Assembly: GCF_050920415.1 (NCBI RefSeq)
Contig: NZ_CP169309.1
Length of the DNA: 64,000 nucleotides
Origin: Escherichia coli
GTDB taxonomy: Bacteria; Pseudomonadota; Gammaproteobacteria; Enterobacterales; Enterobacteriaceae
Direction: 5' to 3' (one strand)
Position numbers and translations under genes: made by a program. Below the pieces are notes generated by a model. It was not told where the DNA came from. It made no database searches and worked only from the letters and a program-made list of their open reading frames with translations. Below, one piece after another: positions 4,700 to 31,515 of this stretch. Every line of letters begins with the position of its first letter. Within the stretch, counting starts at the first letter, position 1.

Positions 4700-6100
4700 A
4701 TGAGCGTTGTGCCTGTAGCCGACGTACTCCAGGGCCGCGTAGCCGTTGACAGCGAAGTCACCGTGCGCGGATGGGTACGTACCCGCCGAGATTCAAAAGC
4801 TGGCATCTCCTTCCTCGCCGTTTATGACGGTTCCTGCTTTGATCCTGTACAGGCTGTCATCAATAATTCTCTGCCCAATTACAATGAAGACGTTCTGCGT
4901 CTGACCACCGGTTGCTCGGTCATTGTGACGGGTAAAGTCGTGGCATCGCCAGGCCAGGGGCAACAATTTGAAATTCAGGCCAGCAAGGTTGAAGTTGCTG
5001 GTTGGGTTGAAGATCCAGACACTTACCCGATGGCGGCAAAACGCCACAGCATTGAGTATCTGCGTGAAGTCGCTCACCTGCGTCCGCGCACAAACCTGAT
5101 TGGTGCCGTCGCGCGCGTTCGCCATACGCTGGCGCAGGCGCTGCATCGCTTCTTTAACGAGCAGGGATTCTTCTGGGTTTCAACGCCACTGATTACTGCG
5201 TCTGATACCGAAGGGGCTGGCGAAATGTTCCGCGTTTCTACGCTGGATCTGGAAAACCTGCCGCGTAACGATCAGGGCAAAGTGGATTTCGACAAAGACT
5301 TCTTTGGTAAAGAGTCTTTCCTGACCGTATCTGGCCAGTTGAACGGTGAAACCTACGCTTGCGCATTGTCCAAAATTTATACCTTCGGCCCGACTTTCCG
5401 TGCTGAAAACTCCAACACCAGCCGTCACCTGGCGGAATTCTGGATGCTGGAGCCGGAAGTGGCGTTTGCTAACCTGAACGATATCGCGGGTCTGGCTGAA
5501 GCCATGCTGAAATATGTCTTCAAAGCGGTTCTCGAAGAACGCGCTGACGACATGAAATTCTTCGCTGAACGCGTAGATAAAGATGCCGTTTCACGTCTGG
5601 AACGCTTTATTGAGGCCGATTTCGCGCAGGTGGATTACACCGACGCAGTGACCATTCTCGAAAACTGCGGCAGGAAGTTTGAAAACCCGGTTTACTGGGG
5701 CGTCGATCTCTCTTCTGAGCATGAGCGTTATCTGGCAGAAGAACACTTTAAAGCACCGGTAGTGGTTAAAAACTATCCGAAAGATATTAAAGCGTTCTAT
5801 ATGCGCCTTAACGAAGACGGTAAAACCGTTGCGGCTATGGATGTTCTGGCTCCGGGCATCGGTGAAATCATTGGTGGTTCTCAGCGTGAAGAGCGTCTGG
5901 ACGTGCTGGACGAGCGTATGCTGGAAATGGGCCTGAATAAAGAAGATTACTGGTGGTATCGCGATCTGCGTCGCTACGGTACTGTTCCGCATTCCGGTTT
6001 CGGTCTTGGTTTTGAACGCCTGATTGCTTACGTAACTGGCGTGCAAAACGTGCGTGATGTGATTCCGTTCCCACGTACTCCGCGTAACGCCAGCTTCTAA
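4700..6100 (+). CDS. asnS: Asparagine--tRNA ligase (class II aminoacyl-tRNA synthetase)
   Basis: ORF track 4655..6100; start chosen at ATG 4700 ([13 protein letters not shown]) giving 466 aa; class II motifs ([21 protein letters not shown]) visible. Confidence 0.95.
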
Positions 6101-6112
6101 TTTAGCGTCTTC

Positions 6113-6142
6113 AAGAGCCAGCACCCGCTGGCTCTTTTTTTA
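6113..6142 (+). terminator. Candidate rho-independent terminator downstream of asnS
   Basis: Seen directly: inverted repeat AGAGCCAGC-ACCC-GCTGGCTCT followed by a T-run (TTTTTTTAT) just after the asnS stop codon. Confidence 0.7.
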
Positions 6143-6490
6143 TCCTTTCTGTCAAGTTATCTGTTTGTTAAGTCAAGCAATCTATTTGCAACCCCGCCAT
6201 AACGATCATCCTGTTACGGAATATTACACTGCAACATTTGCGCACAAAAACTAATCCGCATTCTTATTGCGGATTAGTTTTTTCTTAGCTGATAGCACAA
6301 TTTTCATACTATTTTTTGGCGTTCTGGATGTCTGAACGAGGATTTAGTGTCAGGTCGATAAAGTTTCTATCAGAAACAAAATTTCCTTTTAGTTAATTTA
6401 AATATAAGGAAATCATATAAATAGATAAAAATTGCTGTAAATATCATCTCGCTTCTAAGGAAATATGACGGTGTTCACAAAGTTCCTTAA

Positions 6491-6557
6491 ATTTTACTTT
6501 TAGTTACATATTTTTTCTTTTTGAAACCAAATCTTTATCTTTGTAGCACTTTCACGG
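6491..6557 (+). promoter_or_regulatory. ompF promoter-proximal OmpR-binding region (F1-F3 boxes); candidate -10 AAAGAT around 6580; long 5' UTR at approx 6592-6701
   Basis: Sequence TTTACTTTTAGTTACATATTTTTTCTTTTTGAAACCAAATCTTTATCTTTGTAGCACTTTCACGG closely matches the ompF OmpR-box region as I recall it from the literature; sits about 150-210 bp upstream of the ompF ATG inside a ~600-bp AT-rich intergenic region. Confidence 0.6.
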
Positions 6558-6701
6558 TAGCGAAACGTTAGTTTGAATGGAAAGATGCCTGCAGACACAT
6601 AAAGACACCAAACTCTCATCAATAGTTCCGTAAATTTTTATTGACAGAACTTATTGACGGCAGTGGCAGGTGTCATAAAAAAACCATGAGGGTAATAAAT
6701 A

Positions 6702-7790
6702 ATGATGAAGCGCAATATTCTGGCAGTGATCGTCCCTGCTCTGTTAGTAGCAGGTACTGCAAACGCTGCAGAAATTTATAACAAAGATGGCAACAAAGTA
6801 GATCTGTACGGTAAAGCTGTCGGTCTGCATTATTTCTCCAAGGGTAACGGTGAAAACAGTTACGGTGGCAATGGCGACATGACCTATGCCCGTCTTGGTT
6901 TTAAAGGGGAAACTCAAATCAATTCCGATCTGACCGGTTATGGTCAGTGGGAATATAACTTCCAGGGTAACAACTCTGAAGGCGCTGACGCTCAAACTGG
7001 TAACAAAACGCGTCTGGCATTCGCGGGTCTTAAATACGCTGACGTTGGTTCTTTCGATTACGGCCGTAACTACGGTGTGGTTTATGATGCACTGGGTTAC
7101 ACCGATATGCTGCCAGAATTTGGTGGTGATACTGCATACAGCGATGACTTCTTCGTTGGTCGTGTTGGCGGCGTTGCTACCTATCGTAACTCCAACTTCT
7201 TTGGTCTGGTTGATGGCCTGAACTTCGCTGTTCAGTACCTGGGTAAAAACGAGCGTGACACTGCACGCCGCTCTAACGGCGACGGTGTTGGCGGTTCTAT
7301 CAGCTACGAATACGAAGGCTTTGGTATCGTTGGTGCTTATGGCGCCGCTGACCGTACCAACCTGCAAGAAGCTCAACCTCTTGGCAACGGTAAAAAAGCT
7401 GAACAGTGGGCTACTGGTCTGAAGTATGACGCGAACAACATCTACCTGGCAGCGAACTACGGTGAAACCCGTAACGCTACGCCGATCACTAATAAATTTA
7501 CAAACATCAGCGGCTTCGCCAACAAAACGCAAGATGTTCTGTTAGTTGCGCAATACCAGTTCGATTTCGGTCTGCGTCCGTCCATCGCTTACACCAAATC
7601 TAAAGCGAAAGACGTAGAAGATATCGGTGATGTTGATCTGGTGAACTACTTTGAAGTGGGCGCAACCTACTACTTCAACAAAAACATGTCCACCTATGTT
7701 GACTACATCATCAACCAGATCGATTCTGACAACAAACTGGGCGTAGGTTCAGACGACACCGTTGCTGTGGGTATCGTTTACCAGTTCTAA
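6702..7790 (+). CDS. ompF: Outer membrane porin F
   Basis: 362-aa ORF; signal peptide [22 protein letters not shown]; C-terminal Phe (VYQF) typical of beta-barrel porins; recognised as OmpF. Confidence 0.96.
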
Positions 7791-17890: not shown

Positions 17891-19193
17891 GCGCCTGTAC
17901 CTTGGCTCCGTAATCATTAATCGGCTGCCATTTCGCTGGCAGTCCGGTGAAATCTGCTTGCGCTACGCCAAGACGTACCGCCTGATCAATAACAATGCGC
18001 GCAACGTCAAAGTGACGTGCACGCGGATACTGTGACAGATATTCGCGTACCACCAGACCAAGATCCAACGGCACTTGTCTGGTTTTGTACACGGCAAGTT
18101 GTTCTTCGATGATCGCCGCCAGCTGTTCGCGGATCTCGTTAAACTCTTCGTACTCCAGATCCTCAGGAAGTTCCCCAGTCACCTCTTCATCGCGCAGTGC
18201 CATCTCTTCGTCACGCATATCCAGCAGACGATCGGCATTGGCATAAGTTAGCGCCCACGGTTCATCAAAATAGGTTTGTACCGACTGACGTAACCGCTGA
18301 GCAAAGACGCGGTTTTTATCCATATCGATAGCGGTACGAATAAATTTGTGTACGTGGCGGTCGTAGCCAATCCATAAGTCGATGGATTGCTGGCCCCAGC
18401 TGATAATACGGTCAAGTTTGCTTTGCAGATCGAACACCAGACGATCGACGAAATGCAGATCATCATGAGTCATCGTCGCATCCTGAATGCGTAACAGATT
18501 AGCCTGCAATTTATCACCTGCCGCTTCCAGCGTATCCTGCAATTCACGCAGCGTTCCGGAAGTTTCCGAAAGCAACAATTCGCAGCTGGAAATCGCCGCC
18601 CGCCAGTCTTTGTTCAGCAACTGGGCGATATCATCTTTCACCTGCTGCTGCTGTTCGTCCATCAGACGTTGCGTCAGGTCGATGCTGTCGAAAATTTCTG
18701 CTACCGAATATTTCAGTGGCGCATAGACATTACGGTGCCAGTGAAACTCATCACCGCCCTCTTCGGCGGCATCTGCCGCGCGTTTCAGTTCGCCCGCCAC
18801 AATCGACAACTGCATAGAAAGGCGCAGCGTCGAAAACTCGCGCTGACGGATGTAGTAATCGGTAATACCGATGCCAAGCGGCGTCAGACGGTAAATTGCG
18901 TTCCCTTCAGCCTGCTCGCTGGTAAAGCGGTTCAGCAGACGTTGACGCACCATGTCGTTGATCGCGTTGTTGGCGCGCACGCCGATGGTTTCGCTGGTTT
19001 GCTCAAACGCATCACTCACATGGCGGAATGCATCCACCAGCTCGCCTTCACTCATCTCACCATCCAGACGCTCGCCGTTCAGCGTGGCAACTGCCAGCAG
19101 AAAAGAGAGTCGGTCTACCGGCAGCGAGATGGAGAAGTCATTTTTTCTGGCCCAGGCAACCAGTTCGGGGACTGTCTGGGAAAATTCACTCAT
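17871..19193 (-). CDS. mukF: Chromosome partition protein MukF (kleisin)
   Basis: 440-aa ORF, N-terminus [20 protein letters not shown]; immediately upstream of mukE-mukB. Confidence 0.95.
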
Positions 19194-19975
19194 ACTTTAT
19201 CCTTGCTCTGCGGTTTGCGCGCGGTGACATGAATATAACGCCCCAGGGTAATATACGGTTCCTGACGGCAATAACGCGTTTCTAATTCAAGTAATGCTTC
19301 ATAGCAGTCGCGCTGCTGGTGCTTCTCGCGCAGGTAATCATGAAACACGCGAACGCCGGTCTTACCCATAATTTGCCAACCAGCTTCTTCCAGCCACAGA
19401 TAAACCTGCGCCGGGTCGCGTGGATAATCTGGCGAAAGCGTCCGTTTTTTCTTTTTCGGCATTCCCGCCTGCACGTAATCAAAATTCCCGGCGACCATGT
19501 TATGCATCAGCAAGCCGTGCGCATTGTAGAACATTAACGACAACACACCGCCTGGACGTAACACTGACCACAGGGTCTGCAATACGCTGCGGGGATCGGC
19601 CACCCACTCGAGCACCGCATGGAACAATATCAGATCAACGGGCGTTTCCAAATGCGAAGCAACATCCTGAGCGGCGCAATGTATAAATTGCATGTTGTCG
19701 CTCACACCTTTTGCTTCTGCCGCCTGTTTTGCGCGGTCGATCATCTGCGCTGAAAGATCGCATAAAATGACCTGATGCCCACGCTCGGCCATTTTGATTG
19801 CGGTCTGCCCTTCTCCACCGCCAGCATCCAGCACACGCAGTTTTTGCGAGCCCATTTCCGCCAGCACGCGATCGAGATCCTGCCACAGAATAGCCTGTCG
19901 AAGCTGCCCTTTGGTGGTGCCGTAAATGTTACGGGAAAACTTTTCCGCAATATCATCAAAATTGCGATCCTGCAT
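19190..19975 (-). CDS. cmoM: SAM-dependent methyltransferase CmoM (SmtA), tRNA cmo5U methyl ester formation
   Basis: ORF track 19190..19987; start chosen at the ATG at 19975 ([13 protein letters not shown]); SAM-binding motif VLDAGGGEG visible; stop overlaps the mukF start (ATGA). Confidence 0.88.
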
Positions 19976-20110
19976 TGCTTTCTCCACCGGTTGGCTAAGA
20001 CGTTTTCTGATAAAGACGCTATTTTGTCACAGCCACGGCGAGAATGAACCCGTCTGGTGTAATATCGCTGGCGATCCCTTGCTATATGGTCAAAAAAGGA
20101 ACCAGAAAGG

Positions 20111-20890
20111 ATGCTTTTTACACTGAAAAAAGTGATTGGCAATATGTTGCTGCCACTTCCGCTGATGTTGCTGATTATTGGCGCTGGCCTGGCGCTGCTG
20201 TGGTTTAGCCGTTTTCAAAAAACCGGGAAGATTTTTATTAGCATTGGGTGGCTGGCGCTCTTGTTATTGAGTTTGCAACCGATAGCCGACCGCCTGCTGC
20301 GTCCCATCGAAAGCACCTATCCGACATGGAATAATTCGCAAAAAGTGGACTATATCGTGGTGCTCGGAGGTGGTTATACCTGGAACCCGCAGTGGGCACC
20401 GAGCTCTAATTTAATCAATAACAGTCTGCCACGCCTGAATGAAGGTATCCGCTTATGGCGCGAAAATCCGGGATCAAAACTGATCTTCACGGGAGGCGTA
20501 GCAAAAACCAATACGGTGAGTACAGCCGAAGTAGGTGCCCGAGTTGCGCAATCGCTGGGCGTGCCGCGCGAGCAAATTATCACTCTGGATTTGCCAAAAG
20601 ATACCGAAGAAGAAGCTGCGGCAGTGAAACAGGCAATTGGTGACGCACCTTTCCTGCTGGTGACCTCCGCATCACATCTGCCGCGGGCGATGATCTTTTT
20701 TCAGCAGGAAGGGTTAAATCCGCTACCAGCCCCGGCGAATCAGTTGGCCATCGACTCGCCGCTTAATCCGTGGGAACGAGCTATCCCTTCTCCAGTCTGG
20801 TTAATGCATAGCGATCGTGTTGGATATGAAACGCTTGGCCGCATCTGGCAGTGGCTGAAAGGTTCGTCAGGCGAGCCACGGCAAGAGTGA
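20111..20890 (+). CDS. elyC: Envelope biogenesis factor ElyC (YcbC), DUF218 family inner-membrane protein
   Basis: 259-aa ORF with an N-terminal hydrophobic segment; divergent from cmoM as in K-12. Confidence 0.85.
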   Translation: MLFTLKKVIGNMLLPLPLMLLIIGAGLALLWFSRFQKTGKIFISIGWLALLLLSLQPIADRLLRPIESTYPTWNNSQKVDYIVVLGGGYTWNPQWAPSSNLINNSLPRLNEGIRLWRENPGSKLIFTGGVAKTNTVSTAEVGARVAQSLGVPREQIITLDLPKDTEEEAAAVKQAIGDAPFLLVTSASHLPRAMIFFQQEGLNPLPAPANQLAIDSPLNPWERAIPSPVWLMHSDRVGYETLGRIWQWLKGSSGEPRQE

Positions 20891-21760
20891 TTTTGATGCC
20901 AGATCGAAGTTGCGCCGACTAAATCGTCCGGTATTAACCAGTTGCGCAACTTCATCCCATAACACATACAACCAACGCCGCCAGATGAACGACTCCGCCA
21001 CTGGCGCGCGTTGCAGATAACTCCAGAGCAAATCTTCCGCCAGAGAATTATCCATTAGTCGGAACAGTTCGTATTCTCGCGGTGCCCAAAGCATTAGTCC
21101 CGGTCCGACCATCGCCAGTAACTGATCGCTGCGCGAATCTTTCAGCATGCTGCCTAAACAGAAGTTACCGTGAATCAGCACACAATTGTCGTTAAAGCCT
21201 TCAAATAATGCCGGGAGACATTCACGGGTGCGAAACAGGATCCGCTTATCTTGCATCGTTAGACCGGTGTTATTGAACTGATTGAGCGTAGTCCATAGCA
21301 CTTCAACATGTTGCCGGTACCATGAGGGCCAGAAATTTTCCTGAGTATTGTCGACCGCGCCGACGCAACCACGACTGTCCTGACGGTGCCAGGCCAGTAA
21401 GGCTTCAACGATTTGGTCTTTGAGTTGTTCCCAGCGTTCTGGTGTTCGGGCTGGTGCCTCCACCGAAACACCACGCATTCGCTCCAGTAGCAGGACATCG
21501 GGGCCGGGGTGTTCTTCATGCGTCATCACACCATAAATAGTCGGCATACGGACAGTCCCACTTCTTGCCAGCATGGTGGTTTTCCATGCCAGTTGTCGGG
21601 CTCTTCCGGGCGCACTAAAGCTTCTTGCCATTAACGGCATTGGGTTTCCCTGGCTGTCATACAAAGCCCACAACGCCGTATCCGCTTTTTCATTGACGCA
21701 CTCAATACGACTGAGTTTTTCGCCCAGTAAATGGCTTAATTCGGCACGCAGCTGTTCCAT
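20867..21760 (-). CDS. ycbJ: Uncharacterised protein kinase-like / aminoglycoside phosphotransferase-fold protein YcbJ
   Basis: 297-aa ORF; the HGNF...D pattern resembles the catalytic loop of APH/choline-kinase-like phosphotransferases (inference); 3' end overlaps elyC by 24 nt in convergent orientation. Confidence 0.8.
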   Translation of the reverse strand: MEQLRAELSHLLGEKLSRIECVNEKADTALWALYDSQGNPMPLMARSFSAPGRARQLAWKTTMLARSGTVRMPTIYGVMTHEEHPGPDVLLLERMRGVSVEAPARTPERWEQLKDQIVEALLAWHRQDSRGCVGAVDNTQENFWPSWYRQHVEVLWTTLNQFNNTGLTMQDKRILFRTRECLPALFEGFNDNCVLIHGNFCLGSMLKDSRSDQLLAMVGPGLMLWAPREYELFRLMDNSLAEDLLWSYLQRAPVAESFIWRRWLYVLWDEVAQLVNTGRFSRRNFDLASKSLLPWLA

Positions 21761-21913
21761 TCAGATTACCCTCATAAAAGCTACTGCTTTCATAATGAGC
21801 GCCAATATAAAAGATGTCACCTGAATGAGATCAATTGTTGAAAAGAAAAATTGAGGAAAATCGTAACGGTACGACACTCCTCCCAAAATTGGCTGGAGTG
21901 TCGTGAAGTGAAA

Positions 21914-22839
<926 letters not shown>

Positions 22840-22890
22840 AGTTCCTCCAGATGGATCGGGTTATGAATGCATAAATCTTATCATAATCAT

Positions 22891-24123
22891 TTATGCGACG
22901 GGGTCTATTTCCCAGCCGGCGCGGCAATCAGTAAAGAGGCCTTGCGGGCAGCGTCCTAATGTCACCCGCGTTGCCTGCTGCCAGTTAGCGAAATCAGTAA
23001 TCGCCTGACGTAACCCTTTTTGCAGCGTTGTCGTTGGTTTAATGCCTTCCTGTAACCACAGAGAGATAACTTCAAGGATGCCTGTCTGGCGATGCATTTT
23101 GGCATCCATTCGCCCAACTAATTGCCCACGATGTAATAACGGCAGAACAAAATAGCCATACTGGCGTTTCGGCGCTGGGGTATAGCACTCCAGCCGGTAG
23201 CTAAAATCAAAAAGCTGCTCCGCGCGTTTGCGATCCCAGACAACAGGATCAAAAGGCGAAAGTACCGCGCTGTGCGTTGCAGTGAGCTTTCCGGCGAGCG
23301 CGCGTTCGAGTAGCGGCAGCAAATCAGCATGCAGCCAAAGATTGCCCAATTTTTCAACATGCACAGCAATGATTTGCTGCTGTTCAGCCCTCGCTTCGCG
23401 CCAAGCCGCCAGTGCCGGACGTTTCAGCCGATAGTAATCTGCCAGCCACTGTTCGCGGAATATGCCCAGGCTACGCGCACTGTTATCCAGCATGATGATT
23501 TCTGCTTCTGTTTGCGAAACGAGATCGCGCTCATCATCCCAGTCAGGCATGACACGGTGGGTTAAATCATAAACGCGCTGGAAGTTGCGCCGTTCAATCA
23601 CCATCACCTTTCCGGCAGTAAATAAACCTTCCAGATGCCGTTTATGCGGCTTCCATTCCCACCAACCGCTTGCACCTTTACGAGAATGCTCGAAATCGGC
23701 TGAACGTACCGGCCCCTTATCATGAATATGTTGAATTAACTGTGCAATTTCTGCCGCATGTTCCTGCATCCAGGCGTCTTTGTATTTCCAGCCCATTTTT
23801 TCAGGTGCCAGCATGCGGTGGCGAATAAGACGAAAATCGCTACGTGGCATAAAGCAGGCTTCATGCGCCCAGTATTCCATTAATTCGCCACGCGCCAGAG
23901 ACTCATCCAACCACTGCGCAGGATAATTTCCCAGACGACTGAAAAGCACCAGATATGGACTACGGGCAACAATATTGATGGTATCGATTCGCAGCAAGGA
24001 CATGCGGGAGATCGTTGCCGGAATATCCTCCAACGACGCTCGACGGCGGGGTTTGTTTAACAGGCCTTGCGCGGCAAGGTGAAGATTACGCGCATCAGCA
24101 AGGGAGAGGTGCGGCAGCGACAT
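22891..24123 (-). CDS. ycaQ: Winged-helix DNA glycosylase-like protein YcaQ (HTH_42 / AlkZ-like family)
   Basis: 410-aa ORF positioned between lpxK and ycaR as in K-12; family assignment from memory of this locus, not from a motif I can verify by eye. Confidence 0.8.
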   Translation of the reverse strand: MSLPHLSLADARNLHLAAQGLLNKPRRRASLEDIPATISRMSLLRIDTINIVARSPYLVLFSRLGNYPAQWLDESLARGELMEYWAHEACFMPRSDFRLIRHRMLAPEKMGWKYKDAWMQEHAAEIAQLIQHIHDKGPVRSADFEHSRKGASGWWEWKPHKRHLEGLFTAGKVMVIERRNFQRVYDLTHRVMPDWDDERDLVSQTEAEIIMLDNSARSLGIFREQWLADYYRLKRPALAAWREARAEQQQIIAVHVEKLGNLWLHADLLPLLERALAGKLTATHSAVLSPFDPVVWDRKRAEQLFDFSYRLECYTPAPKRQYGYFVLPLLHRGQLVGRMDAKMHRQTGILEVISLWLQEGIKPTTTLQKGLRQAITDFANWQQATRVTLGRCPQGLFTDCRAGWEIDPVA

Positions 24124-24159
24124 TCATGACTCCGTCAATCGAACGCTGCCGCGGCGTAA

Positions 24160-25146
24160 CTAGTTGCCAGAAGCCAGCGAGGTTAGTTGCGCAAGCAGTT
24201 TCGCTGGTTCATCGCCTGAAAGCTGTGCGTCAACAGGCAAATACCACCAATTATCATCTGCAAAGGCCCGGCATTTCACCGCATCTTTTTCAGTCATAAC
24301 TAGCGTTTGCCCGTCGCTTACCAACGCGCTGACATCCGTATAATTCAAAGACTGATGATCGGCCAGTGGTACACATTTTTCCGGTTGTACGCCGCACATC
24401 TTCAGCGTGGCAAAAAAGCGCGGCGGATGCCCAATCCCCGCCATCGCCACCACATGTTCAAGTTGAGCAACGTCACAACGCGTACCGGTACGTAAATTCA
24501 CCGCCTGCCCCGGCAGCAGATGCATGGGGATTTCACCGCTGCGGGGGACACCGCCGTTGACGATTACCGCATCAACCGACTTTAAGCGCCCCGCTCGCTC
24601 ACGCATTGGCCCCGCCGGCAACCACCAGCCATTGCCAAAGCGACGCACGCCATCAATAACGACGATTTCAACATCACGCGCCAGACGATAATGCTGTAAA
24701 CCGTCGTCGGTTACGATGATCTGCACATCAGGGTGTTGCGCCAGAATGGCTTTTACCGCATCAGAACGCACGGGAGAAACCGCAACAGGCGCGCCAGTGC
24801 GTTGATAAATCAACACAGGTTCATCACCCGCCTGTGCTGTGGTGGTATCTACCGACAATAACAGCGGATACGATTCAGCCTTACCGCCATATCCCCGGGA
24901 CACGACTCCCACGCGAATACCGCGCTGTTGCAACTGTTCCACCAGCCAGACAACGACCGGAGTTTTTCCGTTGCCGCCAGCGGTGAGATTACCAACCACG
25001 ACAACCGGTACGGGGGCACGCCAGGCGCGCTTCAGTTTTAGTTTATAGCAAAGACGGATCGCGCCACTCACCAGACCATACAACCAGGAGAGTGGCAGCA
25101 ATAGCCGCCACAAAGGGGATTCACCAGACCAGATTTTTTCGATCAT
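24160..25146 (-). CDS. lpxK: Tetraacyldisaccharide 4'-kinase (lipid A biosynthesis)
   Basis: 328-aa ORF; P-loop [12 protein letters not shown] visible; start overlaps the msbA stop. Confidence 0.94.
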
Positions 25147-26891
25147 TGGCCAAACTGCATTTTGTGAAGTTGCGCGTAAACGCCACGGTGCTCAAGCAAA
25201 TCGTTATGCGTACCGCGTTCCACAATGACACCATCCTCGACGACCACGATTTCGTCTGCCTTTTCAATGGTAGACAAGCGGTGGGCAATCACCAGAGAGG
25301 TACGGTTTTTCTGCAACTCATCCAGTGCCGCCTGAATCGCACGTTCAGATTCGGTATCCAGCGCCGAGGTAGCTTCGTCCAGAATCAGAATCGGGCTATC
25401 ACGCAACAAGGCTCGAGCGATGGCAATACGCTGACGCTGACCGCCAGAGAGCAGCACGCCGTTTTCACCAATCACTGTATCGAGACCGTTATCCATCTTA
25501 TTGATGAAGTCCATGGCGTAGGCCATACGCGCCGCTTCTTCAATTTGCTCACGGCTGTACTGTTCTGTCCGTGCGTAAGCAATGTTGTTGGCAACCGTAT
25601 CGTTAAACAGATGGACATTCTGCGACACCAGAGCAACCTGGTTACGTAAAGACGCCAGGGTATACTCGCGCAGATCGTGACCATCCATCAGGATTTCGCC
25701 TTCATCAATATCGTAAAAACGTGTGATTAGGCTGGCGATGGTTGATTTACCTGAACCAGAGCGTCCAACCAGAGCAACCGTCTTCCCTGCCGGAATTTTC
25801 AGGTTGATGTTACGCAATGCGGGTACATCACGTCCCGGATAAGTAAAGGTGACATTGCGGAATTCTACGTCGCCAGTCGCACGCTCGATCACGCGCTTAC
25901 CTTCGTCTTTCTCCTGCTCACTGTCCAGAATGGTAAACAGCGTCTGACAAGCCGCCATACCGCGCTGGAACTGGGCGTTAACGTTGGTCAGCGATTTCAG
26001 CGGACGCATCAGTGCAATCATTGAAGAGAAAACAACGGTAATCGTACCGGCAGTCAGGCTATCCATGACGCTAGGGAAGCTCGCCGCATACAGAACAAAC
26101 GCCAGCGCTAAAGAGGCGATCAACTGAATGATCGGATCAGAGATGGAAGAGGCTGAAACCATTTTCATCCCCTGAAGACGCATTCGGTTACTGACTTTAT
26201 CGAAGCGTTTCGTTTCCACCTCCTGACCACCAAAAATCAATACTTCTTTGTGGCCCTTCAGCATTTGTTCTGCGCTGGTGGTCACCTGCCCCATGGTGTT
26301 CTGCATGTTTTTACTGATGTTGCGAAAACGCTTCGATACAACGCGAATCGCAATCGAAACAATCGGTGCCAGCACAATCAAAATGATCGACAGTTGCCAA
26401 CTGTAATAGAACATCATGATGAACAGGCCGATGATCGACGCACCTTCACGCACAACAGTAATCAGTGCGCCGGAAGAAGAAGAAGCAACCTGTTCGGAAT
26501 CGTAGGTGATACGTGACAACAGCGTACCCGTTGACTGTTTGTCAAAGAATGAAACTGGCATTCCCATCATGTGACCAAACAGGCGGCGACGCATGGTCAT
26601 TACCACCTTTCCTGATACCCAGGAGATACAGTAGCTGGAGACATAGCTGGTGATACCACGTAAAATCATCAGCCCGATCACCACCAGCGGCATCCACACC
26701 AGCACGGAGCGATCTGTTTTACCAAAGCCATCATCAAGAAGTGGCTTAAGGAGCGATAACATGAAGGTATCGCTGGCTGCGTTGAGGATTAACGCTACGC
26801 CCGCCACGATCAGACCCGCTTTAAAAGGCGCAATGGTTGGCCACAGTCGGCGGAACGTCTGCCACGTAGAGAGATCTTTGTCGTTATGCAT
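25143..26891 (-). CDS. msbA: Lipid A / LPS flippase MsbA (ABC exporter, fused permease-ATPase)
   Basis: 582-aa ORF; Walker [13 protein letters not shown] signature LSGGQRQR and six N-terminal TM segments visible. Confidence 0.97.
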
Positions 26892-26927
26892 TCAAAAAAC
26901 CAGCATTTGTTGAAATAGCCGCATATT

Positions 26928-29192
26928 CTACCCGTTATCCACTGGCACGCCAAACCACTGATGATACCAACGAGGTAAAATTTGCTCCCTGAGGCTGCTA
27001 ATCCGCCAGCCTTGCGCTGAAAAATCGACCGTTACTTGCCCCTGATGAGGAGTATCAAGCCACGTATAACCCTGTTGTTGATAGCGATGCTTAACTTTGT
27101 TAGAGGGCAGTCGCCATGCGTTATAGCGCGATGCCGATGCGAGTGCCACTTTTCCATTCACTCGCTGAATTAATGGCAACGATGATGAGGTATTACTGCC
27201 ATGGTGAGGTACCTGAAGTAATGTTGCCTGCATTTGCTGCCAGTAACGGCTTAGCATCTTTTGTTCAGCGGGGGCTTCAATATCACCGGTTAGAAGAATG
27301 CTATTCGTCCCGTCATCAATCTTAACCACACAGGAATGGTTATTTCCTTTATCGTTGCTACCTTGTAAAGGCCAGTGCGCGCTGAAACGCAATCCTTGCC
27401 ATTGCCACGCTTCGCCACGCACACAGGGCTGATGATGTTCCCAGCTTAAAGGGCTTCTGACCCATAACGTCGGCCAGGCTCGTAATATCGAGTCCAGCCC
27501 TCCCCGATGATCCAGATGTTCATGACTCAAAATGACGCCTTCTGGTTCAAGATTATGCCAGCGTAGCCAGGGGATAATCAGTTGTTGCCCACTATCCCCC
27601 TCCGGCCAGGCCAGTCCGGTGTCATAGAGAATCGCTTTACCGTTTCGCGCAATGACCATTGCCAGCCCTTGCCCGACATCAAGCATGTACACCTGCCACG
27701 CGTCAGGCCGAGGTTTTTGCCACAGCGGCCAGCACATCAGCAAGCCTCCAGCCACACACATTGCCGGCAACGCTCGCCAGGCGTTTAATCGCCATACCAC
27801 CAGTAAGAACCATGGGGAAAATGTTAGCCATTGCCAACGTTCAGCAATGTTGATCCACCCTTCCGGCAAACTCTTTAACCCCCAGAAAAGTAAAGCCAAA
27901 GACCGGTCGGCAAGAAACCATACTCCTTGTTCTACGATTAACGGCCCGCTTAAATGCATAACCATCGCTGCGAGGATCAACGGAACCGTGATAAATGTCA
28001 CCAGGGGAATTGCAAATAGGTTTGCAATAAACGAGGTCAGACTAATGCCATGAAATATGACGATTTGCACGGGCATAAGCAGGAGGGTGATTCCCAGTTG
28101 CAGATGGATGAGGGAAACAACCGCGCGCAATACCGGCGGCAGCTGCCACTCCGGACAGGGAAACCACTGATACCAAAAAATCAGTGCCGCGACCGCAGCG
28201 GCAGAGAGCCATAAACTTTGCGAGAGAATGGCAACAGGATCCATCAGCAAAATTGCCGCCAGACAACATATCCATACATCCCAGCCACTCCATTGTCGTC
28301 CACTTAACTTAAGCATTCCCCAAATGGCAAGCGCCACCACGGTACGCAATGCAGGAGGTTGCATTCCCGTTAGCCAGGCGTAAAAAGCAGCACAGCAGAT
28401 TCCACCAATTAATGGCATTTGCCAGTGGATCCAGCACCCAGGCAGAAAAACTTGCCCACCGCGAATGAGTCCTGCAGCCAGCAACGCCGCAAAAGCGATG
28501 TGCAATCCTGATATCGCCATTAAATGCGCCGTTCCAGTATCACGCATGATATTTTTGATTTCTTTGGGGACGGATAACCGTTCCCCCATACCTAATCCAA
28601 GAATAACCGCGTTCCACATATAGGGTTGCAGCGTTGTTTGTAGTGACGCCAGATACTGTGCACGCAGGCTACAATTCGGTTCAATGACACTTGCCTGCAG
28701 AAAACGCCCGGTGAGCGGTTGATGCTGGGCAATGGCATAACGCTGGCTATCAAAGCCGCCATCATTAAGTTGGCCATGAACTGCACGAACTTTGAGTTTC
28801 ATTGACCATACTTGTCCGGCACAAACCGCTTGCGGAAGATATTCGCCATACAGTACGAGGCCTGGCGCAGGGAATATACGTCGACCTTGTAGATGAGTAA
28901 TTTGACCGTAATGAGTGGTCATGCCGTCAGTAGCAATGATCTCAACAATTGCATCCTGCGTCGAGCCAGTTAAGGTTTCTCCTGCCCACAAAATTTGCTT
29001 TGCCGCTGATATGCCCCAAAGAAAAAACAGCAACGTCAGCGCGATATAACGGACGGCTTTAACACGAATAAATGCCAGTACGCAGGCGAAGATAGTCAGA
29101 AGCACAAGGGTTACTGTCCCTGGCAATTGGGGCAAAATCAGCAACGGAAAAATTCCGCAAATTATGCATACTCCGACTGTCGTTATTTTCAT
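26928..29192 (-). CDS. ycaI: ComEC/Rec2-family inner-membrane protein with C-terminal metallo-beta-lactamase domain (YcaI)
   Basis: ORF track 26928..29222; start chosen at the ATG at 29192 (MKITTVGVCIICGIF), giving 754 aa; polytopic membrane N-terminal part and C-terminal SHEHLDHRGG (HxHxDH) motif. Confidence 0.88.
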   Translation of the reverse strand: MKITTVGVCIICGIFPLLILPQLPGTVTLVLLTIFACVLAFIRVKAVRYIALTLLFFLWGISAAKQILWAGETLTGSTQDAIVEIIATDGMTTHYGQITHLQGRRIFPAPGLVLYGEYLPQAVCAGQVWSMKLKVRAVHGQLNDGGFDSQRYAIAQHQPLTGRFLQASVIEPNCSLRAQYLASLQTTLQPYMWNAVILGLGMGERLSVPKEIKNIMRDTGTAHLMAISGLHIAFAALLAAGLIRGGQVFLPGCWIHWQMPLIGGICCAAFYAWLTGMQPPALRTVVALAIWGMLKLSGRQWSGWDVWICCLAAILLMDPVAILSQSLWLSAAAVAALIFWYQWFPCPEWQLPPVLRAVVSLIHLQLGITLLLMPVQIVIFHGISLTSFIANLFAIPLVTFITVPLILAAMVMHLSGPLIVEQGVWFLADRSLALLFWGLKSLPEGWINIAERWQWLTFSPWFLLVVWRLNAWRALPAMCVAGGLLMCWPLWQKPRPDAWQVYMLDVGQGLAMVIARNGKAILYDTGLAWPEGDSGQQLIIPWLRWHNLEPEGVILSHEHLDHRGGLDSILRAWPTLWVRSPLSWEHHQPCVRGEAWQWQGLRFSAHWPLQGSNDKGNNHSCVVKIDDGTNSILLTGDIEAPAEQKMLSRYWQQMQATLLQVPHHGSNTSSSLPLIQRVNGKVALASASRYNAWRLPSNKVKHRYQQQGYTWLDTPHQGQVTVDFSAQGWRISSLREQILPRWYHQWFGVPVDNG

Positions 29193-29397
29193 GCACCCTC
29201 CCTGTTTATAGAAAGTGTGCAACTTTGTTGAATGGTTGTCTGGTGGAAGTTTTGCGTTCCCCGAGGCACGTTCAGAAGAATTTAACGACAGGGTGAAAAC
29301 TGCTCAAAACTCTGCGAGGCAGCTTCCAGTTCCAGATTAGAGAAATGAAAAAAGCACCCGACAGGTGCTTTTCTCGCGTTCAAGTTTGAGTAAAAAC

Positions 29398-29682
29398 TTA
29401 ACCGTAAATATTGGCGCGATCGCGCAGTTCTTTACCTGGTTTAAAGTGAGGAACGTATTTTCCTTCCAGTTCTACTTTATCGCCAGTCTTCGGATTACGT
29501 CCGGTACGTGGTGCGCGGTAGTGCAAAGAGAAACTGCCGAAACCGCGGATTTCAATACGCTCGCCCTGCGCAAGAGTCGAGGCCATATGCTCCAGCATCT
29601 CTTTTACTGCATCTTCAACCGTCTTGGCGGGAATGTGCGATTGCTGGGTGGCAAGTCTTTCTATCAATTCTGACTTGGTCAT
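29398..29682 (-). CDS. ihfB: Integration host factor subunit beta
   Basis: 94-aa [14 protein letters not shown]...; HU/IHF family. Confidence 0.96.
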
Positions 29683-29737
29683 GATTCCTCCGGTTCCTTA
29701 AAGGCAAATTTAGCGGCTGCTGTTGCTGCATTGATTA

Positions 29738-29762
29738 AGGGCGGCCGTAGCCGCCCTTAGTG
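29738..29762 (-). terminator. Candidate hairpin terminator/attenuator between rpsA and ihfB
   Basis: Seen directly: perfect 9-bp stem AAGGGCGGC-CGTA-GCCGCCCTT; the downstream T-run on the minus strand is weak, so this may be a partial terminator. Confidence 0.45.
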
Positions 29763-29841
29763 CTTGATTACAGGACGAAACCTGCAATCTGTCAAGTAAA
29801 CTCAACAAACTTCGGAATAAAAATCCCGAAGAGTCAGAGAA

Positions 29842-31515
29842 TTACTCGCCTTTAGCTGCTTTGAAAGCTTCAGCCATTGCGTTGTTGGAGAAGTTTGCAT
29901 CTTCCTGTTTGTTAACAGTTGCGATTGCATCTTTCTCGTCAGCTTCGTCTTTCGCACGAACAGACAGGCTGATTGCGCGGTTTTTACGATCAACGCCGGT
30001 GAATTTAGCTTCAACTTCGTCGCCAACGCTCAGAACCAGGGTAGCGTCTTCAACGCGGTCACGGGATGCTTCAGAAGCACGCAGGTAACCTTCTACGCCG
30101 TCAGCCAGTTCTACGGTTGCGCCTTTAGCGTCAACTGCAGTTACTTTACCGGTTACGATAGCGCCTTTCTTGTTCAGAGCAACCCAGTTGTTGAACGGAT
30201 CTTCTGCGAGCTGTTTAACGCCCAGGGAGATACGTTCACGTTCTGCGTCAACCTGCAGAACAACTGCAGCGATTTCGTCGCCTTTTTTGTATTCACGAAC
30301 TGCTTCTTCGCCTGCAACGTTCCAGGAGATGTCAGACAGGTGAACCAGGCCGTCGATGCCGCCGTCCAGGCCGATGAAGATACCGAAGTCAGTGATAGAC
30401 TTGATTTTACCTTCAACACGGTCACCCTTGTTGTGGGTTTCCGCGAACTGCTGCCACGGGTTAGCTTTGCACTGTTTCAGACCCAGGGAGATACGACGAC
30501 GTTCTTCGTCGATATCCAGAACCATAACTTCCACTACATCGCCAACGTTAACAACTTTGGACGGGTGGATGTTTTTGTTGGTCCAATCCATTTCGGAAAC
30601 GTGTACCAGGCCTTCAACGCCTTCTTCGATTTCAACGAAGCAGCCGTAGTCGGTCAGGTTGGTCACGCGACCAGTCAGTTTGGTACCTTCCGGATAACGT
30701 TTAGCGATAGCTACCCACGGATCTTCGCCCAGCTGTTTCAGGCCCAGGGATACACGGGTACGTTCGCGGTCGAACTTCAGCACTTTAACAGTGATTTCGT
30801 CGCCCACGTTGACGATTTCGCTCGGATGCTTAACACGTTTCCAGGCCATATCAGTGATGTGCAGCAGGCCGTCAACGCCGCCCAGATCAACGAATGCACC
30901 GTAGTCAGTGAGGTTCTTAACGATACCTTTAACTTCCATGCCTTCCTGCAGGTTTTCCAGCAGCTGATCGCGCTCTGCGCTGTTTTCGGATTCGATAACG
31001 GCACGACGAGAAACAACAACGTTGTTGCGCTTCTGATCCAGCTTGATTACTTTGAATTCAAGCTCTTTGCCTTCCAGGTGCAGAGTGTCACGCACCGGAC
31101 GAACGTCTACCAGAGAACCTGGCAGGAACGCACGAATACCGTTCAGCTCAACAGTGAAGCCGCCCTTAACTTTGCCGTTGATAACACCGGTAACAGTTTC
31201 AGCATCTTCGTAAGCTTTTTCCAGCGTGATCCAGGCTTCGTGACGTTTAGCTTTCTCACGGGACAGCAGAGTTTCACCGAAGCCGTCTTCTACTGCGTCC
31301 AGAGCAACGTCAACTTCGTCACCTACCTGGATTTCCAGCTCGCCCTGGGCGTTTTTGAACTGCTCAGCCGGGATGGCGGACTCAGATTTCAGACCAGCGT
31401 CAACCAGTACTACGTCTTTGTCGATAGCAACAACAACGCCACGAACGATAGAACCCGGGCGGGTTTCGATTTCTTTTAAGGACTCTTCAAAGAGTTGAGC
31501 AAAAGATTCAGTCAT
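29842..31515 (-). CDS. rpsA: 30S ribosomal protein S1
   Basis: 557-aa ORF with six repeated S1 domains, N-terminus [24 protein letters not shown]. Confidence 0.97.

Follow-up and report, generated by a model that had tools for sequence, protein, structure and literature searches.

YcaQ of Escherichia coli was shown by Bradley et al. 2020 (PMC7367128) to be a monofunctional glycosylase that acts on cationic N7-alkylguanines and unhooks the interstrand crosslinks made by azinomycin and nitrogen mustard. According to published work, the wild-type enzyme binds duplex DNA through a concave surface of winged-helix domains and hydrolyses the N-glycosidic bond of cationic N7-alkylguanines without base flipping; its substrates include 7-methylguanine and, in crosslinks made by nitrogen mustard or azinomycin, the adducts on both sides. 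Endo IV and base excision repair then process the resulting abasic sites, in a pathway secondary to UvrA-dependent repair. Alanine replacement of either polar residue of the Q-phi-D motif (Q45A and D47A) abolished 7mG excision and NM-ICL unhooking, D47N was active and described as fully active, and exposure to MMS or mechlorethamine (HN2) did not induce ycaQ (PMC7367128). The AlkX proteins of Acinetobacter baumannii and Thermobifida fusca, of the YQL subfamily, share with YcaQ the family, the fold and the position of the motif, which reads QxD. AlkX Q39A was left with 3% of 7mG excision, and the AlkX alanine mutants kept partial ICL unhooking of ∼50% after 1 h (PMC11228520). In the structure of T. 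fusca AlkX with DNA the QxD side chains touch the phosphates flanking the lesion, the motif Gln of the product complex forming a hydrogen bond with the 5' backbone phosphate and not with C1' (PMC13303869). AlkZ of Streptomyces sahachiroi and the AZL proteins, which are self-resistance glycosylases, have PF06224 and the non-base-flipping glycosylase architecture in common with YcaQ; however, AZL proteins have a (Q/H)-phi-Q motif, act on one natural-product lesion and are encoded in biosynthetic clusters, none of which applies to ycaQ, and the related subfamilies have only Gln or His at the position of the motif Gln (PMC9040887).

The window analysed here is a stretch of 64,000 nucleotides from E. 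coli contig NZ_CP169309.1. An open reading frame on the minus strand at 22891..24123, with an ATG start and 410 codons plus stop, had been called ycaQ in a sequence-only reading that gave the coordinates exactly and did not name the strand; the ORF list, the translation and the family match agree in identifying it as a real gene. The product matched Pfam PF06224 (AlkZ-like) over all 329 positions of the profile (1-329; E=2.2e-77), scoring 261 bits where the cut-off is 25.9, which bears out the AlkZ-like (HTH_42) membership proposed in that reading. A phmmer comparison aligned residues 6-381 with PDB 9zd6 (E=1e-49), the T. fusca AlkX-DNA complex (PMC13303869), so that homology to a solved tandem winged-helix structure of the family is established at the level of sequence. 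The protein is identical to K-12 YcaQ (b0916) at 404 of 410 residues and equal to it in length, and the gene has the same neighbours and intergenic distances, the same ycaI-msbA-lpxK-ycaQ operon and the same position within lpxK-ycaQ-ycaR-kdsB as in K-12. The RefSeq product name is 'crosslink repair DNA glycosylase YcaQ'. The 5.2-kb region was found in 5,425 of 5,426 complete E. coli genomes, far beyond chance, and was always annotated msbA, lpxK, ycaQ, ycaR and kdsB. The GC content of ycaQ, inspected for a signature of horizontal transfer, was 0.50-0.54, the same as that of its neighbours. These results indicate that the gene is almost certainly ycaQ and occupies the distal end of the msbA-lpxK operon. 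Very probably a single account holds for the locus, in which the open reading frame encodes an HTH_42/AlkZ-like DNA glycosylase of the YcaQ-like (YQL/AlkX) branch and the operon and catalytic-site features are as described below. From 2020 onwards the literature has covered the activity of YcaQ, its family, its position in the msbA-lpxK operon and its constitutive expression; all that is new here is one private substitution, Q45R, judged from these comparisons to be probably inactivating unless it is a sequencing error.

Six residues differ between the window protein and K-12 YcaQ. Five of the differences (E122A, P147S, D266A, C391R and T401A) are common to a parent allele present on 87 contigs, which is otherwise identical to the window protein and has Gln at position 45. 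The sixth, Q45R, falls in the catalytic motif, for which the codons 45-47 (23983..23991, minus strand) read CGA ATC GAT, encoding R-I-D in the context ...SRMSLL-R-I-D-TIN..., compared with Q45-I46-D47 in K-12. Codon 45 (23989-23991) is CGA (Arg) here and CAA (Gln) in both K-12 and the nearest genome, the plus-strand base at 23990 being C in the window and T in the other two. Thus the window copy, though a ycaQ ortholog by descent, departs from the Q-phi-D motif of active YQL enzymes, and it reads RxD where AlkX reads QxD. A 71-mer centred on the R45 codon had no exact match among the 5,426 complete E. coli genomes, the best match being 70/71, while the same 71-mer with the base reverted to CAA was exact in 3,210 of them. 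Among ∼15 billion proteins the exact R45 protein occurred on one contig only (WP_432780807.1 / XVM70925.1, 5.31 Mb). The Gln and Asp of the motif were invariant in 124/124 full-length representatives of clusters at 50% identity, and QID was present in the Enterobacterales loci, with three apparent exceptions, two of which look like one-residue index shifts and the third like an assembly in which the gene matches are fragmented.

Across 62.7 kb, 8 SNPs separate the window, a segment of the E. coli chromosome, from its nearest complete genome, MFDS1022581 (NZ_CP169399.1), which has an IS2 copy that the window is without; the element splits an NAD(P)H oxidoreductase gene in NZ_CP169399.1 (3238344-3239571), at a point corresponding to window position ∼43631. 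Three of the 8 SNPs change an amino acid with the window allele as the candidate derived state, namely OmpF G307D, GloC A69V and YcaQ Q45R.

The rarity of the allele invites the explanation that Q45R arose as an error of sequencing or assembly and that the strain truly encodes wild-type YcaQ, since the R45 protein is known from that single contig, is absent from all 5,426 complete genomes and belongs to a sequence whose nearest relative is just 8 SNPs away in 62.7 kb. However, the change is a simple transition rather than a homopolymer indel, its context ATCGATTCGCAGC, as read from the sequence, contains neither a homopolymer nor a GATC or CCWGG (Dam/Dcm) motif of the kind that gives rise to systematic long-read miscalls, and the other seven SNPs, being synonymous, conservative and non-conservative, look like ordinary strain SNPs. 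An error is therefore regarded as unlikely, and Q45R as likely real, the Gln45 codon having presumably been converted to Arg by a single private transition. A genuine substitution might still be harmless, or might alter the enzyme, if Arg45 keeps the phosphate contact so that the enzyme remains active, perhaps with tighter binding of DNA. Compatible with such tolerance are the contact of the motif Gln with the 5' phosphate instead of C1' in the T. fusca complex (PMC13303869), the full activity of D47N, by which the motif allows some change (PMC7367128), and the partial ICL unhooking left in AlkX Q39A (PMC11228520). It is nevertheless quite unlikely in view of the invariance of Gln in all 124 diverse family representatives, the restriction of related subfamilies to Gln or His at that position (PMC9040887), and the near abolition of 7mG excision in Q45A of YcaQ and Q39A of AlkX (PMC7367128, PMC11228520).

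Because these two alanine substitutions nearly abolish 7mG excision, the R45 allele, if real, would quite probably be strongly impaired in catalysis. The loss may be partial since Arg could also bind phosphate and the AlkX alanine mutants keep ICL unhooking. Folding of the R45 product is most likely preserved, and DNA binding may be too, but most of its base-excision and unhooking activity would be lost; the source strain would then lean on nucleotide excision repair for N7-alkylguanine and crosslink lesions. A natural single-residue change in the active-site region, A89P, has been described for the YQL protein of Salmonella enterica and impairs ICL unhooking (PMC13303869), and is a precedent for natural loss-of-function alleles of enterobacterial YcaQ orthologs. 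The two cases differ in that A89P, assayed biochemically in AlkX, perturbs the beta-sheet supporting the motif, whereas Q45R replaces the motif residue itself with an effect predicted by comparison. The chances are about even that the source strain carries a genuine natural allele of ycaQ that is catalytically null or strongly impaired, with transcription of the surrounding essential operon untouched.

The genes around ycaQ all lie on the minus strand. Each was identified by Pfam and NCBIfam equivalog models and by the RefSeq annotation of a near-identical genome. Upstream are ycaI/comEC (26928..29222) and the essential genes msbA (25143..26891) and lpxK (24160..25146), matched by the NCBIfam equivalogs NF008381 and TIGR00682; downstream are ycaR (22657..22839) and kdsB (21914..22660), matched by NF008806 and TIGR00466, followed by ycbJ (20867..21760). 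For ycaI/comEC the mechanical start on the minus strand is a TTG at 29222 (764 aa), and the RefSeq start is 30 bp downstream at 29192 (754 aa). The genes elyC (plus strand) and ycbJ (minus strand) are convergent and their 3' ends overlap by 24 bp (window 20867-20890), like in K-12. By coordinates, 36 bp separate ycaI from msbA, and msbA and lpxK overlap by 4 bp, as do ycaR and kdsB. The spacers flanking ycaQ are 36 bp on the lpxK side (24124..24159) and 51 bp on the ycaR side (22840..22890), so that the 36-51 bp gaps or overlaps put forward in the sequence-only reading were accurate. An Rfam search of 19000..31000 gave no match.

The placement of ycaQ in the operon ycaI-msbA-lpxK-ycaQ has been stated in PMC7367128, PMC4421995, PMC13287592 and PMC11228520 and restated in PMC9040887 and PMC11228520. 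In K-12-type strains, CRISPRi directed against msbA lowered ycaQ mRNA 3.6-fold and against lpxK 11-fold (PMC10328246), and the promoter msbAp, located among recoded (coding) positions, has been described as driving the 'msbA-ycaQ operon' (PMC13287592). In the window, a candidate msbA promoter, TTGGCG-17-TAGAAT (26925..26953, minus strand; consensus match only), overlaps the 3' end of ycaI and spans its stop codon. The lpxK-ycaQ spacer at 24124..24159 (minus strand) holds the ycaQ Shine-Dalgarno sequence GGAG, 7 nt before the ATG, and lacks a terminator; with both genes on the same strand, short gaps or overlaps throughout and no terminator-like site in between, lpxK and ycaQ have the organisation of an operon. 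None of 11 terminator-like sites, a number equal to the shuffle expectation, fell in the gap after lpxK or in that after ycaQ, and neither gap contained significant RNA structure, the fold of the lpxK-ycaQ spacer having z=-1.33. Promoter-like sites totalled 6, below the shuffle mean of 9. A candidate internal ycaQ promoter within lpxK (24279..24250) was set aside, being only a consensus match with 9/12 positions. The 11-fold fall of ycaQ on lpxK knockdown argues that most ycaQ transcripts come from upstream. Accordingly, ycaQ is the last cistron of ycaI-msbA-lpxK-ycaQ. Neither a promoter nor a terminator is evident for ycaQ alone, so that its expression, shared with two essential lipid A genes, is constitutive and low and not damage-induced. 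The mix of DNA repair and envelope functions, which the sequence-only reading had thought unusual, is already discussed in the literature, where the operon is the reason given for ycaQ being constitutive and not damage-induced.

A 9-bp GC-rich stem, GCGGCAGCG / CGCUGCCGC (24112-24152, minus strand), encloses the Shine-Dalgarno sequence and AUG of ycaQ and occurs in Escherichia and Citrobacter, with no wider conservation. As a conserved translation brake the hairpin was rejected: it folds in the window, but with the z of -1.33 given above; RNAalifold gave no consensus pairs across 28 genera, and no covariation was found; only 57% of cells pair, and a slide of -3 is equally good. Poor expression of ycaQ from T7 vectors has been ascribed to GC-rich first codons (PMC12661326), and the GC-rich hairpin or first codons may be related to that behaviour, with which they are compatible.

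On the downstream side, the 51-bp ycaQ-ycaR spacer (22840..22890, minus strand) contains the core of a putative ycaR-kdsB promoter and the ycaR Shine-Dalgarno sequence GGAGG. An alignment of the ycaQ 3' end and the gap revealed an extended -10 element, TGnTAnnnT (22883..22875), conserved in 18 genera of Enterobacteriaceae and followed by the ycaR Shine-Dalgarno sequence, and an independent consensus scan returned TAGACC-16-TATGAT at 22907..22880. The -35 element would fall within the last codons of ycaQ (22875-22907 region, minus strand). A 'well defined' promoter for ycaR-kdsB has been placed at position 969865 (PMC5954155, Supplementary Data 1), which coincides with the extended -10 element and corresponds to window position ∼22870, within the gap, when converted with the 777-bp offset inferred from the lpxK coordinates of that study relative to NC_000913.3; the spacing between the converted position and either candidate -10 deviates a little from the ideal. 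The same study reported polar CRISPRi effects inside 'the ycaR-kdsB operon' (PMC5954155), and ycaR-kdsB has been used as a 'simple TU' in Northern blots (bioRxiv 10.1101/2021.11.18.469045). Transcription of ycaR-kdsB would accordingly start at its own promoter in the 51-bp gap, and kdsB is independent of read-through from ycaQ; some read-through into ycaR-kdsB is possible because the gap has no terminator-like site. The proposal that ycaQ is co-transcribed with the surrounding LPS genes therefore holds for msbA-lpxK, where it is backed by the CRISPRi data (PMC10328246), and finds no such support for ycaR-kdsB, which the literature treats as a unit of its own with a promoter in the 51-bp gap.

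Conservation of the arrangement was evaluated by scanning one genome per species with K-12 YcaQ, from which 80 loci were kept, belonging to Enterobacteriaceae, Erwiniaceae, Yersiniaceae and Hafniaceae together with one MAG labelled Rhodocyclaceae. In tblastn with the neighbours from the window, 79/80 loci kept both the order and the orientation of lpxK-ycaQ-ycaR-kdsB, shorter gene patterns among these being explained by contig ends. In Enterobacteriaceae and Erwiniaceae the gaps were 11-56 bp between lpxK and ycaQ and 31-108 bp between ycaQ and ycaR. In Serratia, Rahnella, Rouxiella, Hafnia and one Enterobacterales MAG the corresponding distances were 0.76-2.7 kb and 113-408 bp. The longer lpxK-ycaQ interval of one Serratia and one Rahnella locus contains two cold-shock-domain genes upstream of ycaQ, to which the Serratia locus adds an oppositely oriented HGLS (dioxygenase) gene. 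In locus L085, which encodes a YcaQ relative of 54% identity, csp-csp-ycaQ is followed by two xanthine-dehydrogenase-like genes on the opposite strand and then by ycaR-kdsB. The slot contents of the Serratia, Rahnella and related lineages lie at L071 3315-5890, L076 5168-5905, and L085 4215-4863 and 6508-10201. Transcription of E. coli ycaQ reportedly rises on heat and cold shock in published transcriptomics. Outside the Enterobacterales arrangement, the three relatives examined, namely the Rhodocyclaceae locus (L082) and P0137 and P0138 (49% and 44% identity), have no LPS neighbours and lie in unrelated contexts. The L082 protein (6001-7179) is from the MAG labelled Rhodocyclaceae (Betaproteobacteria) and is 54% identical to the E. 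coli protein, unusually close for that family, which may reflect transfer or a binning artefact.

One explanation for the position of ycaQ in the LPS string is a functional coupling of crosslink repair with envelope biogenesis or with the control of growth rate, as the sequence-only reading had supposed for growth rate and repair capacity. The order kept in 79 of 80 loci, the tight spacing in Enterobacteriaceae and Erwiniaceae, and the co-transcription with msbA-lpxK shown experimentally (PMC10328246) speak for such coupling. However, the linkage is missing in L082, P0137 and P0138, and the slot also accommodates cold-shock genes in the Serratia and Rahnella loci, an HGLS gene in the Serratia locus and xanthine-dehydrogenase-like genes in L085. 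Moreover, alkX of A. baumannii is a monocistronic gene inducible by mechlorethamine, in contrast to the operon-embedded and constitutive ycaQ (PMC11228520), the conserved neighbourhood of the Streptomyces YQL genes is a different one (PMC9040887), and the published phenotypes of ycaQ concern DNA damage only. Coupling is therefore considered very unlikely, and its growth-rate form found no support, the linkage being restricted to Enterobacterales and the slot holding unrelated genes in some families. Judging from gene content, the lpxK-ycaR interval behaves as a permissive slot in Enterobacterales, with ycaQ one of several unrelated passengers. Since other genes occupy the slot and the linkage is limited to Enterobacterales, hitch-hiking of ycaQ on a constitutive essential operon is preferred over a link to LPS synthesis. 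Under hitch-hiking, the arrangement fixed in Enterobacterales would most likely go back to an insertion at a permissive site flanked by two conserved LPS units.

The comparative result provides modestly useful context that argues against a functional tie of crosslink repair to LPS synthesis. The significance of Q45R is local and of minor interest; it illustrates that an allele without activity can go unnoticed under the annotation 'crosslink repair DNA glycosylase'. If real, R45 is a natural catalytic-site mutant that could be used to ask what the enzyme contributes to fitness outside the laboratory. Glycosylase-mediated ICL repair would then have been knocked out naturally in an E. coli lineage associated with food animals, a sign that this repair may be dispensable, or even costly, in some niches.
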